Part shown: positions 8,762 to 14,142 of the stretch, one piece after another | How the letters are laid out: each line of letters starts with the position of its first letter | How positions within the stretch are numbered: position 1 is the first letter of the stretch | Source of the DNA: Patescibacteria group bacterium | Lineage (GTDB): Bacteria > Patescibacteriota > Patescibacteriia > UBA2591 > UBA6264 | Direction: 5' to 3' | Length of the DNA: 36,205 nucleotides | Assembly (NCBI GenBank): GCA_021735685.1 | Contig: JAIPGN010000006.1 | Coordinates: forward strand, 1 to 36,205 | Translations under genes and position numbers: made by a program | Notes under the pieces: model-generated | The model's database searches: none | What the model was told of the DNA's origin: nothing | What the model saw: only the letters and a program-made list of their open reading frames with translations

Positions 8762-9466
8762 TTATTTTTTAAGATAAAATTTTCTTTTAACCGGATTAAA
8801 TTTTTCTATAGAATAACGCAACATGGTTCGTGGCATTTTCTGATAATGCTTTTGTAAGAATTTTTCTTCTTGAGCTTGATCCCTTTTACCCACCTCTCTA
8901 AGCATCCATCCTGTAGCCTTGTGAATTAAATCATGCTGATCATTTAAAAACAAGGTGGCTATTTTTAAAGTATCAGTAAATTGATTATTTTTAATAAAAG
9001 CGTATGTAGCCACAATAGCTATCCTTCTTGACCAAAGATGTCTAGAGCGAGCCAGTTGATAAAGTACTTTTTTATCTTTTTCCAACAAAAAATCACCAAC
9101 AATCTTAGAGGCAGACAAATCTACTAAATCCCAATTATTTATATATTCCACCTGCTTTAAATAAAAATAAAAAATTTCTTTTCTTTTTTTATCACCGGCT
9201 TTTTGATATTGATCAACTAAAATAAAAAGAGCAATTTGGCGATATTCGTGAAACCTGCTTTGGGTTAATTTCTCTAAATCAGTCAAAGACAAATCTCTAT
9301 ATTTTTTTCCTATTTTTCTCAACAAAGGTACTCTGGCTCCCAAAAAAATATCACCTTCTCCATATCCTCCTTTGTTTGTTTTAAAAAAAATCTGTAAAAT
9401 TTTCGCTTTCTGAGGATTGGCTATTTCTAGAATTTCTTTTTTGAGAGAAATTAAGTTATTATCCAT
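8762..9466 (-). CDS. DNA alkylation repair protein (AlkD-like)
   Basis: FFKT..GGYGEGDIFLG, NNWDLVD, DLIHKATGWMLREVGKR and MPRTMLRYSIE. Confidence 0.9.
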   Translation of the reverse strand: MDNNLISLKKEILEIANPQKAKILQIFFKTNKGGYGEGDIFLGARVPLLRKIGKKYRDLSLTDLEKLTQSRFHEYRQIALFILVDQYQKAGDKKRKEIFYFYLKQVEYINNWDLVDLSASKIVGDFLLEKDKKVLYQLARSRHLWSRRIAIVATYAFIKNNQFTDTLKIATLFLNDQHDLIHKATGWMLREVGKRDQAQEEKFLQKHYQKMPRTMLRYSIEKFNPVKRKFYLKK

Positions 9467-9557
9467 AAAAACTTGATAAAAATATCTTTTTGTCTTTCTT
9501 GGAAGTGATTATTTACAACAATCAAATATCATAAATGACTATCTTGATAGAAAAAAA

Positions 9558-9914
9558 CTACTCTTTTTCTTCATCTTCTTGGTCTTCTTCTGGAGCAGGA
9601 GTCATACTTTCAATTAGCTCTCTTAAAATCTTTTTATCTTCTGAACTAAGGTCTTCTTTCTTCAGGTAATCTCCTAAAAACTCTCTGCCAATTTCGTTCA
9701 TTACTTCTTCTTCTCTCCCTTTAGTAAGGCGAAACAATCTTTTTTCGTACTTCAGTCTTTGACGAAAATCATATTCCGGAACCTGAAGATGCTCTGGCAA
9801 AGAATCATTCAAAATTCTAATTTTCCCCTGCACACAAGAATCAATTTTATCTTTTAGAAAAACATCTTCCCTTTTTTCTTCAGAAAAATTATTTCCTTTT
9901 TTTTCAAAATTCAT
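9558..9914 (-). CDS. Hypothetical protein, highly charged
   Basis: 118-aa ORF with an ATG start, co-oriented with its neighbours; no recognisable motif. Confidence 0.6.
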   Translation of the reverse strand: MNFEKKGNNFSEEKREDVFLKDKIDSCVQGKIRILNDSLPEHLQVPEYDFRQRLKYEKRLFRLTKGREEEVMNEIGREFLGDYLKKEDLSSEDKKILRELIESMTPAPEEDQEDEEKE

Positions 9915-10000
9915 AATTAAAAAATATTAAACTAATTAAATCTAATAACTCCATAAAAATTTTACGAAGTCTCATAGAGGCCGGACCTCCATAAATCAAT

Positions 10001-10086
10001 TGGCGGAGAGGGCGGGATTCGAACCCGCAAGTCCTAAGGGACGCCAGTTCTCCAAACTGGTGGAATAACCGTTATCCGACCTCTCC
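10001..10086 (-). tRNA. tRNA-Ser (GGA), CCA encoded
   Basis: GGAGAGG acceptor, CCAGT TTGGAGA ACTGG anticodon arm, variable arm GTCCCTTAGGAC, GGTTCGAATCC and CCTCTCC GCCA; 86 nt. Confidence 0.95.
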
Positions 10087-10101
10087 ATTATTTTCAAAAT
10101 T

Positions 10102-11127
10102 TTATAATTTTTTCTTTAAATTTAAAAAATTTTTCAACCTTTTGGAATGATATGAGTTACTAAAGCCAATCTCTTGATAATATCGCAGAACTTCATGTTT
10201 CCTGTATAGACGAACGCTACTACCTCCCTGCTTTTTCGGAGAAAAATTATATATTTCTAATGTATTGTAAACAAAATCTAACAAGGGAATAGATTTATTG
10301 GTAAAAGCCAAACCAATATTATAATGATTATATCCATGACTATTGTGTCTGTGCCCGTAGACACAACCGTCAGTATCTATTAATCCCCGAAGGCAACTTT
10401 TAGAAAATTTTTTATTTTTTTTAATCCAGATAGGAACACCTACCTGATTTTTGACCTTATTCCCTTTTTTTAAGCCTCTTGCTAACAAAAAATCTACTAA
10501 GTTGCTGCTGGAAATTGTTATTCTAACCACTTTTTTACTTTTTGGTGATTGAAGACAATAAACAGCTGGAGTTAATTTGAATAAATTTTTAATCAAAGAA
10601 CAAATAAAACCAATATATTGACGACCATTTTCTTTATGCACGGTAACAACTACTTGATAATCGCTACCTATTCCTCCATCCCCTAAAATAATTCCTATGA
10701 ATTCTGCTAATTCTGTGCTATTACCAGGCCTAGATATATCCTTTTTTAAATTACATTTTCTGTAAAATTCAGGATATTTTTTTCTTCTCTGTTGAGAAAT
10801 CAATCCTCCCCTTACTCTCCCTTTTGGCGTCCCGGGGTTACCATGCCTTTCGACAACTTTTAGACCTCCTTTGCGTGCCGCCCTTGATGCGCTCCAAAAG
10901 TCTGGCAACATTTTATATTCAGGAATCTTAGTCTCTTTATTTTTCAACCCTAAACATATCCCAAATGCCCTATTAGACATTGTAAATTTTTCCCTGCGCC
11001 AATCAAACAACGTTCTTCTATGAATATTTAGTTCATTGGCTAATTGTGACCAGGTAAAGTTAGAGTGTCTGTAAACATTATTTAAAAATTTAGATTGACG
11101 CCCTTTTTTAAACTTAACTCTAGGCAT
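10102..11127 (-). CDS. Free-standing double-motif LAGLIDADG (DOD-type) endonuclease with an N-terminal HTH
   Basis: Motifs LAEFIGIILGDGG and CLRGLIDTDGC; HTH WSQLANELNIHRRTLFDWR. No intein splice termini are seen. The ATG at 11127 lies 8 nt after a TATAAT, suggesting a leaderless mRNA. Confidence 0.88.
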   Translation of the reverse strand: MPRVKFKKGRQSKFLNNVYRHSNFTWSQLANELNIHRRTLFDWRREKFTMSNRAFGICLGLKNKETKIPEYKMLPDFWSASRAARKGGLKVVERHGNPGTPKGRVRGGLISQQRRKKYPEFYRKCNLKKDISRPGNSTELAEFIGIILGDGGIGSDYQVVVTVHKENGRQYIGFICSLIKNLFKLTPAVYCLQSPKSKKVVRITISSSNLVDFLLARGLKKGNKVKNQVGVPIWIKKNKKFSKSCLRGLIDTDGCVYGHRHNSHGYNHYNIGLAFTNKSIPLLDFVYNTLEIYNFSPKKQGGSSVRLYRKHEVLRYYQEIGFSNSYHSKRLKNFLNLKKKL

Positions 11128-11176
11128 ATACACATATTATAATACAAACCTCTAGCTAAAATTTCTCTAATTTCTT

Positions 11177-11192
11177 ACTCAGCCACCTCTCC
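11177..11192 (-). pseudogene. Probable 16-nt 5' remnant of a tRNA-Ser
   Basis: Minus strand reads GGAGAGGTGGCTGAGT: the same acceptor strand as both tRNA-Ser genes here, followed by a canonical D-arm start. It is a GC-rich island in an AT-rich spacer. Confidence 0.6.
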
Positions 11193-11200
11193 TTTAAAAT

Positions 11201-11743
11201 TTAAAAACGATAAATATGAATTGGTTTTTCTCCTTTTCTATTAGGTTGATGTACTTTTTCTGGAGTTAATCCTTTAATGGGAAAGCCATAAGCAATCACT
11301 CGAGCGCCTTTTTTTAATTCTTTCTCTAATTTAAATCTTAATCTCTTTTCTAAAACCTTGGGCATACCATAAACATAAATAGCGTCTGCTTGAGATAAAT
11401 CTTCGAAAAATAAATTTTTCATTTTAAAAATTATCCCCTGACTTTCGCTGACAAAAAGTTTTTTTATCCAAGAGTAAAGAAAAAACAAAAAACTCATTTC
11501 AATGCCAATAGCTTTAACTGGAAAATGTTCTCCGGCGTAAAAAACAACCCGACCATCTCCTGAACCCAAGTCATAGAAAACTTCCCCCTCTTTTAATTGA
11601 ATAGCTTCAAAAATACGAGGTAGCTCTCTGCGAGAACAAGGAACAAAAGGAGCAAAAGATTTACTAGAGTTATGAAAAGTAATTCCGACCAACAAAAGAA
11701 AAATGGCTAAAACAGAATAAACAAAAAACGAAAAAGTTACCAT
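11201..11743 (-). CDS. Class I SAM-dependent methyltransferase with an N-terminal membrane anchor (FAM173-like)
   Basis: APFVP, motif I YDLGSGDGR and KLEKELKKGARVI. Confidence 0.85.
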   Translation of the reverse strand: MVTFSFFVYSVLAIFLLLVGITFHNSSKSFAPFVPCSRRELPRIFEAIQLKEGEVFYDLGSGDGRVVFYAGEHFPVKAIGIEMSFLFFLYSWIKKLFVSESQGIIFKMKNLFFEDLSQADAIYVYGMPKVLEKRLRFKLEKELKKGARVIAYGFPIKGLTPEKVHQPNRKGEKPIHIYRF

Positions 11744-11751
11744 AAAGAAAA

Positions 11752-14142
11752 TTATTTTTTCTTAAGATTAGCTATCCTCATCGTGGTTTCAATAATAGTG
11801 TCTGGAAGTAAAGAAATAGAATCAATCCCCTCTTTAACTAAAAATTCTGCAAAATCGGGAAAATCGCTCGGTCCCTGACCACAAATTCCCACCTTACAAT
11901 TATTTTGATGAGCAACTTTAATTAACTCTTGAATCAATTTCTTTACCGCTTCATTTCTCTCGTCAAAAAGATGAGCCACTAAACTGGAATCCCTGTCTAA
12001 ACCTAGAGTTAATTGCGTTAAATCATTAGAACCAATAGAAAATCCATCAAAAAGTTGAGCAAATTCCTTGGCTAAAACAATATTAGAAGGAATCTCAGCC
12101 ATAACATAAATTTGTAAAGGCTTTTGTTTTTGATATTTCTTTCTTAAACCACTTTCTTCAATAATTTTCAAGACTGAACGGGCCTCGCCAATAGTTCGAC
12201 AAAAAGGCACCATCACGATCACATTATCTAAACCAAATTCTTCTCTCACTTTCTTGATGGCTTCACATTCTAATTGAAAAGCTTTTTTAAATTTAGGATC
12301 ATTGTAACGACTCGCCCCTCGCCAACCAATCATCGGATTAGCTTCTTCGGGTTCATAAATAGAACCACCAACCAGATTAGCATATTCATTGCTTTTAAAA
12401 TCAGAAAAACGGACAATCACATCTTTAGGGTAAAAGGCAGCAGCAATTGTGCCAATTCCTTCAGCTAATTTATGAATATAAAAATCAACTTTGTTTTGAT
12501 ATCCTGCTGTAATTTCGTTAATTTTTTTCTTTATCTTTTGATCTTTAATTTTTTTAAAATTAATTAAGGCCAAAGGATGAATTTTGATATGATTATTGAT
12601 AATAAATTCTTCACGAGCTAAACCCACTCCATCATTAGGAAGAAAAGAAAGACCAAAAGCTTGACTCGGCTCCGCTAAATTAAGCATCACTTTGGTTTCA
12701 GGTTTTTTGAAATTCTTTAAACGAGTCTTCTTTACTTGAAAAGGAAGTAATCCCTGATAAACACGCCCCACTTCACCCTCAGCACAAGAGACTGTTACTT
12801 TTTGCCCACTTTTAATTTTCTGAGTAGCATCACCAGTTCCCACCACACAAGGAACTCCCATCTCTCTGCTAACAATTGCAGCGTGACAAACTCTTCCTCC
12901 ATCATCAGTAATAATTGCCGAAGCAATTTTCATAATCGGCACCCAGTCTGGATCAGTCATTTTGGTCACCAAAACTTGACCCGGTTTAAACTTAACAATA
13001 TCTTTAGCACTTTTGATAACATTAACTTCGCCTTGACCAATTTTTGAACCCACAGCCACACCGGTAATTAAAACCTTTTTTTCTTCCTTTTGAGGCTTAA
13101 AAACAAATCTTTCTAAAACATCTACCGATTTCAAAGACTGGACTGTTTCCGGTCGAGCCTGAAGAATATATAATTTTTTATCTTTTCCGTCTTTACCCCA
13201 CTCCATATCCATGGGTCGGCCGTAGTGTTTTTCAATTAAAACCGAATAACGAGCTAACTCTAGAACTTCCTGATCAGAAAGAGTAAACTTACTTCTTTCT
13301 TGAGGGGTGGTCTTAATATTTTTAACCGCAGTCTTGCCTTTCTCGCCATAAGTCATTCTCCACTCTTTTCCGCCCAGCCTCTTATTAACAATTGGTCGAT
13401 ACCCTTGGTCTAACAGTGGTTCAAAAACCATAAATTCATCCGGACTAACCTTGCCCTGAACTACATTTTCTCCCAACCCCCAAGAAGAATTAATTACAGT
13501 TACATCTGCAAATCCAGACTCAGTGTCACAAGAAAACATTACTCCGGAACAAGCCAAATCTGAACGAACCATTTTTTGAACTCCAATGGAAAGAGCCACT
13601 TCGCTATGTTTAAAACCTTTAGACTGGCGATAAACAATAGCTCGATTAGTAAAAAGAGAAGCCAGGCATTTATGAGCAGCTTTTAAAAGATTTTCTGGAC
13701 CCTGAACGTTAAGGTAAGTTTCCATTTGGCCAGCAAAACTAGCATCTGGCAAATCTTCGGCTGTAGCCGAGCTTCGTACAGCGACGTCCACTGCTTTAGT
13801 TTTGTATTCTTGGGATAATCTTTGGTAAGCTTTTTTTAATTCATCAGCAAGTTCTTGACTTAAGGGAGTTTTTAAAATTAACTTGCGAACTTTCTCGCCT
13901 CGCAAAGCTAATTCTTTAACATCTTGCACGTCTAACCCCTCTAAGATTTTTTCAATCTTTTCGCCCAAAGCATCTTGTTGCATAAATCGCCAATAAGCTT
14001 CAGCTGTAGTAGCAAAACCATTCGGAATTCGCACCCCTTGCTTGCCTAATTTTTGATACATTTCTCCCAAAGAAGCATTCTTGCCACCTACTTGAGGGAC
14101 ATTTTTTAGAGTTAATTCCCTAAACCAAAGTATTGTTTGCAT
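11752..14142 (-). CDS. ppsA: Phosphoenolpyruvate synthase
   Basis: VGGKNASLGEM, AVRSSATAEDLPDASFAGQ, phospho-His GGRVCHAAIVSRE and FSIGSNDLTQL. Confidence 0.97.
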   Translation of the reverse strand: MQTILWFRELTLKNVPQVGGKNASLGEMYQKLGKQGVRIPNGFATTAEAYWRFMQQDALGEKIEKILEGLDVQDVKELALRGEKVRKLILKTPLSQELADELKKAYQRLSQEYKTKAVDVAVRSSATAEDLPDASFAGQMETYLNVQGPENLLKAAHKCLASLFTNRAIVYRQSKGFKHSEVALSIGVQKMVRSDLACSGVMFSCDTESGFADVTVINSSWGLGENVVQGKVSPDEFMVFEPLLDQGYRPIVNKRLGGKEWRMTYGEKGKTAVKNIKTTPQERSKFTLSDQEVLELARYSVLIEKHYGRPMDMEWGKDGKDKKLYILQARPETVQSLKSVDVLERFVFKPQKEEKKVLITGVAVGSKIGQGEVNVIKSAKDIVKFKPGQVLVTKMTDPDWVPIMKIASAIITDDGGRVCHAAIVSREMGVPCVVGTGDATQKIKSGQKVTVSCAEGEVGRVYQGLLPFQVKKTRLKNFKKPETKVMLNLAEPSQAFGLSFLPNDGVGLAREEFIINNHIKIHPLALINFKKIKDQKIKKKINEITAGYQNKVDFYIHKLAEGIGTIAAAFYPKDVIVRFSDFKSNEYANLVGGSIYEPEEANPMIGWRGASRYNDPKFKKAFQLECEAIKKVREEFGLDNVIVMVPFCRTIGEARSVLKIIEESGLRKKYQKQKPLQIYVMAEIPSNIVLAKEFAQLFDGFSIGSNDLTQLTLGLDRDSSLVAHLFDERNEAVKKLIQELIKVAHQNNCKVGICGQGPSDFPDFAEFLVKEGIDSISLLPDTIIETTMRIANLKKK

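Follow-up and report, generated by a model that had tools for sequence, protein, structure and literature searches.

Organization of the locus

The window analyzed here, 36,205 nucleotides of contig C1, belongs to the genome of an uncultured Patescibacteria bacterium (611 kb, 35% GC, 44 transfer RNA [tRNA] genes). On its minus strand, a free-standing gene for a LAGLIDADG homing endonuclease lies between a short piece that matches the 5' end of a serine tRNA gene and an intact tRNA-Ser(GGA) gene, and a gene for a methyltransferase-like protein stands upstream of all three. In minus-strand order, the features are as follows.

11201..11743, minus strand: S-adenosylmethionine (SAM)-methyltransferase-like gene, 180 amino acids; open reading frame (ORF) with a Pfam DOT1-type match (E 3.2e-07)
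11177..11192, minus strand: tRNA-Ser(GGA) 5' remnant, 16 nucleotides, GGAGAGGTGGCTGAGT; equals nucleotides 1 to 16 of the tRNA of relative L133
11136..11141, minus strand: TATAAT box, 8 nucleotides before the ATG at 11127
10102..11127, minus strand: LAGLIDADG homing-endonuclease ORF, free-standing, two-motif; 341 amino acids from ATG 11127 (343 amino acids from GTG 11133)
10087..10101, minus strand: spacer of 15 nucleotides from the endonuclease stop codon to the tRNA, read from the sequence
10001..10086, minus strand: intact tRNA-Ser(GGA), 86 nucleotides, short-D-loop type; ARAGORN, Rfam tRNA 54.3 bits
10079..11184, minus strand: stretch of 1106 nucleotides skipped by contigs of runs X3 and X4, flanked by the 8-nucleotide direct repeat GGAGAGGT

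An earlier note on this DNA, made from the sequence alone, had given the same order from the methyltransferase stop codon to the intact tRNA, and all of its positions proved exact. The stop codon (TAA, 11203-11201) is followed by 8 nucleotides (11200-11193) and then by the remnant; the methyltransferase gene is the upstream anchor of the locus and lies outside the mobile unit. The remnant spans the acceptor 5' strand, U8, and the D-stem 5' strand as far as D-loop position 16. It shares its first 8 nucleotides with the intact tRNA, as had been noted, although the statement that only these are shared is not exact, since two scattered matches occur among the next 8. Within the window the 16-mer has a single match at up to 2 mismatches, versus 0.02 expected. 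The concern that it might match no tRNA 5' end of this lineage did not materialize: it agrees at 16 of 16 positions with the start of tRNA-Ser(GGA) both in the closest relative, L133, and in G004, a genome of the same family.

The remnant is unable to pair with the D-stem 3' strand downstream, so it cannot complete a tRNA. The endonuclease gene is part of no intron or intein: separate start and stop codons delimit the ORF between remnant and tRNA, and no intron family was found in Rfam at E ≤ 1 over 9000-12500, where the only matches were the tRNA and one chance match to a plastid family. A group I or group II intron, or a split tRNA, was rejected on the basis of this negative search and of the complete tRNA 3' of the ORF. 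The 1106-nucleotide stretch contains remnant positions 9 to 16, the endonuclease gene, the spacer, and the first 8 nucleotides of the new tRNA.

The site without the endonuclease in related organisms

Seventeen loci were recovered when metagenome contigs were scanned with the methyltransferase. The closest endonuclease-free relative is L133, whose methyltransferase is 87% identical over 120 amino acids (residues 61 to 180). Such a relative had been expected to show a tRNA-Ser starting with the 16-mer just after the methyltransferase, and L133 does so: its 90-nucleotide tRNA-Ser(GGA) starts 10 nucleotides past the methyltransferase stop codon and begins exactly with GGAGAGGTGGCTGAGT. Alignment by blastn divided the locus into three blocks. 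The first (L133 2-387, window 11563-11177, 82% identity) stops at the last base of the remnant; the second (L133 402-467, window 10057-9995) runs from about tRNA position 31 to the 3' end; and the third (L133 480-1637, window 9460-8298) covers an alkylation-repair gene. The first block of homology to L133 thus breaks off at 11177, which places the interruption of a resident canonical tRNA-Ser(GGA) in the D-loop, after position 16 and before position 17. The claim of the earlier note that the cassette disrupted the resident tRNA in this loop is supported by the empty site and by the position of the junction.

Methyltransferase homologs directly followed by tRNA-Ser(GGA) were also present in genomes G001 and G002, in loci L126, L127, and L129-L132, and at genome locus L143. 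These nine loci (65 to 73% methyltransferase identity) carry a third allele starting with GGAGAGGTCGCATAG, and none has the endonuclease. The same site is thus empty in L133 and in nine further methyltransferase-linked loci, and when the 10 nearest methyltransferase loci (L143 and 9 of the 17 from metagenomes) were examined with tblastn, none had a homolog of the endonuclease. In G001, synteny is not kept beyond the tRNA.

One further methyltransferase locus, L128 (69% methyltransferase identity), has the same architecture with an unrelated nuclease family: positions 1980-2404 hold a 13-nucleotide remnant of the GGAGAGGTCGCATAG type, an 84-amino-acid GIY-YIG gene (Pfam PF01541, E 7.2e-14), and a complete canonical-type tRNA-Ser(GGA). 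On the other side of the window tRNA, about 530 nucleotides (9467-10000) between the tRNA and the alkylation-repair gene are missing in L133 and present in the strain of runs X3 and X4. They include an ORF for 118 amino acids (9914..9558), rich in lysine and glutamate, with only a subthreshold Pfam match.

The replacement tRNA is a different allele

The tRNA behind the endonuclease gene is not a restored copy of the interrupted one. In alignment A3 it matches the L133 allele at 61 of 90 positions (68%), whereas L133 matches G004, from another genus of the same family, at 84 of 90 (93%). The window and L133 alleles differ in the D-arm, in two anticodon-stem pairs (compensatory, with both sides changed), and in the variable arm; they share the acceptor stem and the anticodon loop, and the last 28 nucleotides, comprising the T-arm and the acceptor 3' strand, are identical. 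Besides the window tRNA, the assembly has no GGA isoacceptor; its three remaining tRNA-Ser genes (TGA, CGA, and GCT) have the usual long D-loop.

The most similar tRNAs were GGA tRNAs with a short D-loop in G017 (92%) and G018 (91%), which represent two other genera of the family, followed by L204 (89%) and an endonuclease-linked tRNA-Ser(GCT) of G001 (88%). In G017 and G018 the tRNA lies downstream of a phosphoenolpyruvate (PEP) synthase gene, as it does in the window, and the locus has no match to the endonuclease or the methyltransferase. The T-stem of the window tRNA is that of L133, G001, G002, and G004 and differs from that of G017 and G018, a hint that a conversion tract may have ended before the T-arm.

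We considered whether only endonuclease cassettes have the short-D-loop arm (GTCGGATAAYGGT..ATTCCA) and rejected this after a pattern scan that gave 99 stretches, from which 80 loci with 81 matches were fetched (11 of the matches are not in a tRNA). The short-D-loop form is a natural allele type, native in sister genera. The earlier note had proposed that the cassette supplied either a recoded 5' end or a whole tRNA. A whole tRNA is what lies behind the ORF; "recoded" does not hold for a natural allele type that occurs in G017 and G018. The note had also regarded endonuclease-free relatives with the present allele as an argument against the disruption. Relatives of this kind do exist, namely G017, G018, and probably a strain in runs X3 and X4 that is 96 to 98% identical to the window; formally, then, the refuting observation was made, but it leaves the canonical remnant of the window in place.

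At the locus defined by PEP synthase, the methyltransferase where present, and tRNA-Ser(GGA), the genera of this one family carry at least four sharply different GGA alleles, whose types do not track relatedness (L249 in G017, L250 in G018, L252 in G006, L006 in G004, L003 in G001, and L133).

An endonuclease-free form within the species

Both flanks of the cassette are covered by contigs of runs X3 and X4, which come from a different study than the one that probably produced the window. On the tRNA side they correspond to 9369-10028 with 15 differences in 660 nucleotides, and on the methyltransferase side to 11197-11473 with 10 differences in 277 (X3) and to 11197-11461 with 6 in 265 (X4). 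A joint from 10078 to 11185 skips the 1106 nucleotides, with 8 letters that fit both sides, and takes the end of the methyltransferase gene directly to the new-type tRNA. In our reading, this joint arose when the stretch between the two GGAGAGGT repeats was precisely lost; the polarity (loss rather than gain) is our inference, and the opposite polarity belongs to the main rival explanation, weighed below. A second joint, from 10028 to 11208, comes from a more distant relative.

Homologous endonucleases adjoin tRNA-Ser genes

Homologs of the endonuclease have a patchy distribution, occurring in 11 of the 55 genomes of the order. Each of the eight matches with E ≤ 3.3e-24 has a same-strand tRNA-Ser gene immediately on its 3' side, and four weaker matches are not beside tRNA-Ser or were not recovered. 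Among genome contigs, at least 599 pattern matches were obtained, 530 of which encode relatives, and the best 80 loci were examined. A tRNA-Ser gene on the same strand (GGA, CGA, TGA, or GCT) adjoins the 3' side of the ORF in 76 of these 80. The gap from the ORF stop codon to the tRNA ranges from -131 to +32 nucleotides around a median of 0; in 33 of the 76, ORF and tRNA overlap. Of the four remaining loci, two lie at contig ends, one has its tRNA on the opposite strand, and one has a gap of 762 nucleotides. According to database records, the hosts belong to many lineages of Patescibacteria, to Omnitrophota (15 loci), Nitrospirota (7), and Planctomycetota (6), and to others, with 19 lacking a phylum. 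The methyltransferase was found in none of the 80 loci, and the tRNA is therefore the only shared neighbor.

In a tree of 78 endonucleases, the anticodon of the neighboring tRNA changes 11 times, compared with 39.2 in shuffles (none of 200 as low). Eight rows were left out of the tree, four being short or containing a stop (L078, L100, L106, and L111) and four having no adjacent tRNA (L088, L101, L108, and L118). Related hosts share both labels, so the clustering of anticodons is not independent evidence. The window enzyme groups with L043 and L044, both of which adjoin GGA tRNAs. A recent hop of the cassette between isoacceptor loci with a switch of anticodon is not supported by the tree, and the window and G001 endonucleases are only 38% identical despite the 88% identity of their tRNAs. 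At L042 (G039, contig C2), the neighbors of a weaker LAGLIDADG match (E 3.2e-13) are tRNA-Leu and tRNA-Met genes, and this match may represent a different tRNA-linked endonuclease family.

Remnants at other loci and a second before-and-after pair

Sixteen-mers resembling a tRNA-Ser 5' end (at least 14 of 16 positions) number 17 in the 25,230 nucleotides upstream of endonuclease genes, compared with 15 in 792,494 nucleotides of control sequence. The remnants are 16 to 23 nucleotides long, and the junction is therefore always in the D-loop region. At positions 9 to 16, the remnant differs from the adjacent tRNA at 6 of 8 nucleotides in the window and at 0 to 7 of 8 across 18 loci. In 6 of 15 remnants inspected (L081, L083, L098, L102, L109, and L116), the ORF starts at the A7-T8-G9 of the tRNA itself, so that the protein opens with MAE... 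from the old D-stem, and a promoter-like -10 element lies just upstream. Judging from these sequences, the tRNA start region at those six loci appears to have been taken over as the 5' end of the endonuclease gene.

A second before-and-after pair involves a different isoacceptor. In G001, a member of the same genus as the window genome, the tRNA-Ser(GCT) locus has a 5' remnant (26 nucleotides by eye, 23 by the prefix rule), a homologous endonuclease, and a short-D-loop tRNA-Ser(GCT). G000 and G002 have an intact canonical GCT gene there, and the homology between G001 and G000 stops at about tRNA position 22. Beyond the GCT tRNA, G001 contig C7 (L036 / L124) continues with an MscS-like gene, a short-D-loop tRNA-Ser(TGA), and then tyrS; in G002 (L123), canonical GCT and TGA genes lie 12 nucleotides apart before tyrS, and the stretch of G000 that was compared, with its canonical GCT gene, is C3:96259-97563. 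The G001 stretch from the remnant to tyrS gives the impression of a replacement tract, more than 2 kb in length, that takes in two tRNA genes.

The endonuclease and its expression

The designation of the protein in the earlier note as helix-turn-helix (HTH)-LAGLIDADG held for its second part: the Pfam LAGLIDADG_3 score is 25.4 bits, above the cutoff of 22.5. The HTH is plausible and unconfirmed, the Pfam HTH matches (HTH_23, E 0.0076) being below their cutoffs. In an AlphaFold2 model (predicted local distance difference test [pLDDT] score, 94.9), the first ~120 residues form helices, among them an HTH-like pair (H26-32 and H37-44), and the tandem alpha-beta-beta-alpha-beta-beta-alpha core fold of LAGLIDADG enzymes is predicted. 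Foldseek searches with the predicted structure gave 143 matches at E ≤ 0.001, with I-Tsp061I, intein endonucleases, I-LtrWI, I-SceI, and I-OnuI variants at the top; the best was I-Tsp061I (2dch; E 4.2e-12, template-modeling [TM] score of 0.76 by target length), which is also the best sequence-profile match (E 1.1e-06, 18% identity). G149-D150-G151 and D251-T252-D253-G254 (motifs LGDGG and DTDG, numbered from ATG 11127) are invariant across 71 aligned homologs, and the enzyme is presumably active.

The endonuclease gene is present in a single copy in the genome. Its start codon is likely the ATG at 11127 (MPRVK..., as in the two closest homologs), and the GTG at 11133 given in the ORF list is less so. 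TATAAT likewise precedes the ATG of the closest homologs, L043 and L044, by 8 and 6 nucleotides, and the element in the window is a candidate promoter of a leaderless or near-leaderless mRNA, with no -35 element evident. A consensus scan for promoters and terminators gave 4 promoter-like sites, versus 6.8 expected, and no terminator; the TATAAT at 11141-11136 was not among the sites listed.

Proposed mechanism and competing explanations

We consider it probable that a free-standing LAGLIDADG cassette invaded the chromosomal tRNA-Ser(GGA) gene 3' of the methyltransferase, left a remnant of 16 nucleotides, and brought a functional substitute tRNA. The resident 90-nucleotide gene would have been split between tRNA positions 16 and 17, its first 16 nucleotides surviving as a dead remnant, and the incoming DNA would have consisted of the endonuclease gene and a functional tRNA-Ser(GGA) with a short D-loop, another anticodon stem, and another variable arm. 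We hypothesize that the enzyme would cut an endonuclease-free canonical tRNA-Ser(GGA) in or near the D-arm and that the break would be repaired from an endonuclease-bearing copy, the tRNA 5' piece providing homology on the left and the conserved T-arm plus acceptor end providing it on the right. The endonuclease gene would thereby be co-converted with a linked, presumably uncleavable tRNA body. The cell would never be without tRNA-Ser(GGA), because the whole tRNA sits behind the ORF, and splicing would not be needed. A later precise loss between the 8-nucleotide GGAGAGGT repeats could then produce an endonuclease-free "new" allele.

Several results weigh against this reading. The short-D-loop type is common without the endonuclease: of the 70 matches in tRNA-Ser genes, an endonuclease lies upstream in 6 and is absent in 55, the upstream sequence being cut off in the other 9. 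As the type also occurs without it at the syntenic locus in G017 and G018, it is not a resistant allele specific to the cassette. A recognizable remnant is present in only 16 of the 80 homologous loci, with L088 doubtful. Positions 9 to 16 of remnant and adjacent tRNA are identical in L098 and differ at only 2 of 8 positions in L060 and L111, and a changed D-arm is therefore not universal. The left homology arm would measure only 16 to 26 nucleotides, and the GC composition shows no anomaly across the cassette. The joint in runs X3 and X4, which were matched to the window at 85% likeness, is supported by one contig per run (depth, 8.3 and 14.8), with shorter sides of 22 and 42 letters, and the endonuclease-free joined form could be ancestral rather than the product of a loss.

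This last possibility lies at the center of the main alternative, according to which the endonuclease joined a tRNA that already had a short D-loop, the X3/X4 form is ancestral, and the 16-mer is a passenger of the donor cassette, the interruption itself having happened in a relative. The passenger could have arrived, for example, by homologous recombination with a previously invaded relative similar to L133. Contigs of X3 and X4 that link the methyltransferase end directly to the new-type tRNA are what such a history would leave, as are the new-type tRNAs without an endonuclease at the syntenic PEP-synthase locus of G017 and G018, and remnants do travel with cassettes at other loci. We nevertheless regard it as unlikely. 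The remnant lies 8 nucleotides past the methyltransferase stop codon and the L133 tRNA lies 10 past it, with 16 of 16 nucleotides identical; placed and spelled like the L133 tRNA, the remnant therefore indicates that the event occurred in this methyltransferase context. The remnants beside the closest endonucleases (L043, L044, and L045) differ in sequence, and deletion between 8-nucleotide direct repeats offers a simple origin for the X3/X4 form.

It is very unlikely that the protein is an immobile, domesticated LAGLIDADG/HTH factor retained beside tRNA-Ser for a cellular role, whether it regulates in the manner of WhiA or helps tRNA-Ser expression as a maturase would. This view would agree with the intact ORFs at most of the 80 loci in several phyla, beside and often overlapping tRNA-Ser, and WhiA (8dy9_I) and the bI3 maturase (2ab5) are among the fold matches; however, homologs are limited to 11 of the 55 genomes of the order and occupy different tRNA-Ser loci within one genus, the sites of the closest relatives are empty and the remnants record insertion events, and both motif aspartates are invariant in 71 sequences. 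We give hardly any credence to the view that the 16-mer is a decayed tandem tRNA-Ser duplicate or a chance match and that the endonuclease gene sits in an intergenic spacer, with no gene interrupted. Tandem tRNA-Ser genes are indeed frequent, and 19 of the 80 loci have a complete tRNA-Ser within 300 nucleotides upstream of the endonuclease gene. Against this, L133, G001, G002, and seven methyltransferase loci (L126, L127, L129-L132, and L143) have a single tRNA, chance would supply only 0.02 matches even at 2 mismatches where all 16 positions agree, and the homology to L133 ends exactly with the 16-mer.

Implications of the proposed tRNA gene invasion

The invasion of the tRNA-Ser(GGA) gene by the endonuclease cassette, as favored above, would open a new niche for homing endonucleases in bacterial chromosomes, one in which an essential tRNA gene is split and replaced harmlessly without splicing. 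This window contributes the site in its empty ancestral state, the precise position of the junction (16/17 of the tRNA), the finding that the tRNA is foreign, and a form that may reflect precise loss. The clean before-and-after pair points to the D-arm region of the canonical tRNA-Ser(GGA) as the candidate target, and such enzymes may provide new meganuclease scaffolds whose natural target is defined. A mechanism is also suggested for the nonphylogenetic diversity of tRNA-Ser in Patescibacteria.

More tentatively, and without leaning firmly either way, we suggest that a large undescribed guild of splice-free, intron-like nuclease genes invades the D-loops of bacterial tRNA-Ser genes and that repeated invasion and precise loss drive the lateral turnover of tRNA-Ser alleles. 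Its members would include the LAGLIDADG gene described here and the GIY-YIG gene of L128, would be harmless by virtue of a spare tRNA or 5' part behind the ORF, and would often borrow the tRNA promoter and even an A7-U8-G9 start codon. If it exists, such a guild would explain the sharp differences in D-arm, anticodon stem, and variable arm between orthologous tRNA-Ser genes of sister genera of Patescibacteria.

Comparison with known systems

The usual homes of homing endonucleases are introns, inteins, phages, and organelles, and free-standing ones can spread by cutting a neighboring gene and co-converting a resistant allele. In the literature searched, we found no description of a bacterial chromosomal endonuclease at tRNA-Ser genes. 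The window protein resembles I-Tsp061I and other monomeric enzymes in having two LAGLIDADG motifs with conserved acidic residues. The gene for I-Tsp061I resides in an archaeal rRNA intron, whereas that of the window is free-standing and encodes an extra N-terminal domain of ~120 amino acids. Group I introns in bacterial tRNA genes generally occupy the anticodon loop and require splicing. The cassette is like them in being a mobile element in a bacterial tRNA gene that can bear an endonuclease and leaves tRNA function intact; it is unlike them in lacking an Rfam ribozyme match, in being inserted in the D-loop, and in having a complete tRNA after the ORF. WhiA-like domesticated regulators have lost the catalytic residues, carry a C-terminal HTH, and are near-universal in their lineages; in the window family the aspartates are invariant, the extra domain is N-terminal, and only 11 of 55 genomes have a homolog.

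Among the closest architectures is that of SegB of phage T4, one of the free-standing endonucleases known for intronless homing in T-even phages. SegB recognizes a 27-bp site including the T-psi-C stem-loop and spreads, along with flanking tRNA markers, to relatives without it (PMC2330249). Both are free-standing endonuclease genes among tRNA genes, and SegB recognizes a conserved tRNA-gene motif (PMC2330249). SegB is a GIY-YIG enzyme of a phage genome that spreads during coinfection, whereas the window gene encodes a LAGLIDADG enzyme in a bacterial chromosome. Unlike SegB, the window-type gene is tied to tRNA-Ser alone, which it splits within the D-loop; a 5' remnant stays behind, and a whole tRNA comes in as the substitute.

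The other close architecture is that of mitochondrial mobile endonuclease ORFs that carry a replacement gene part, described for atp6 of Allomyces macrogynus and for atp6, atp9, cox2, and nad3 of Glomus (PMC3630166). Common to these and the window are a LAGLIDADG or GIY-YIG ORF, a divergent foreign gene part, a native leftover that matches close relatives, and a host gene that remains functional in the absence of splicing (PMC3630166). The Allomyces and Glomus cases concern organelle protein genes that received a foreign 3' (C-terminal) end, with the native remnant downstream (PMC3630166). The window presents the mirror image: a tRNA gene in a bacterial chromosome, with the 5' remnant upstream and the functional copy behind the ORF.

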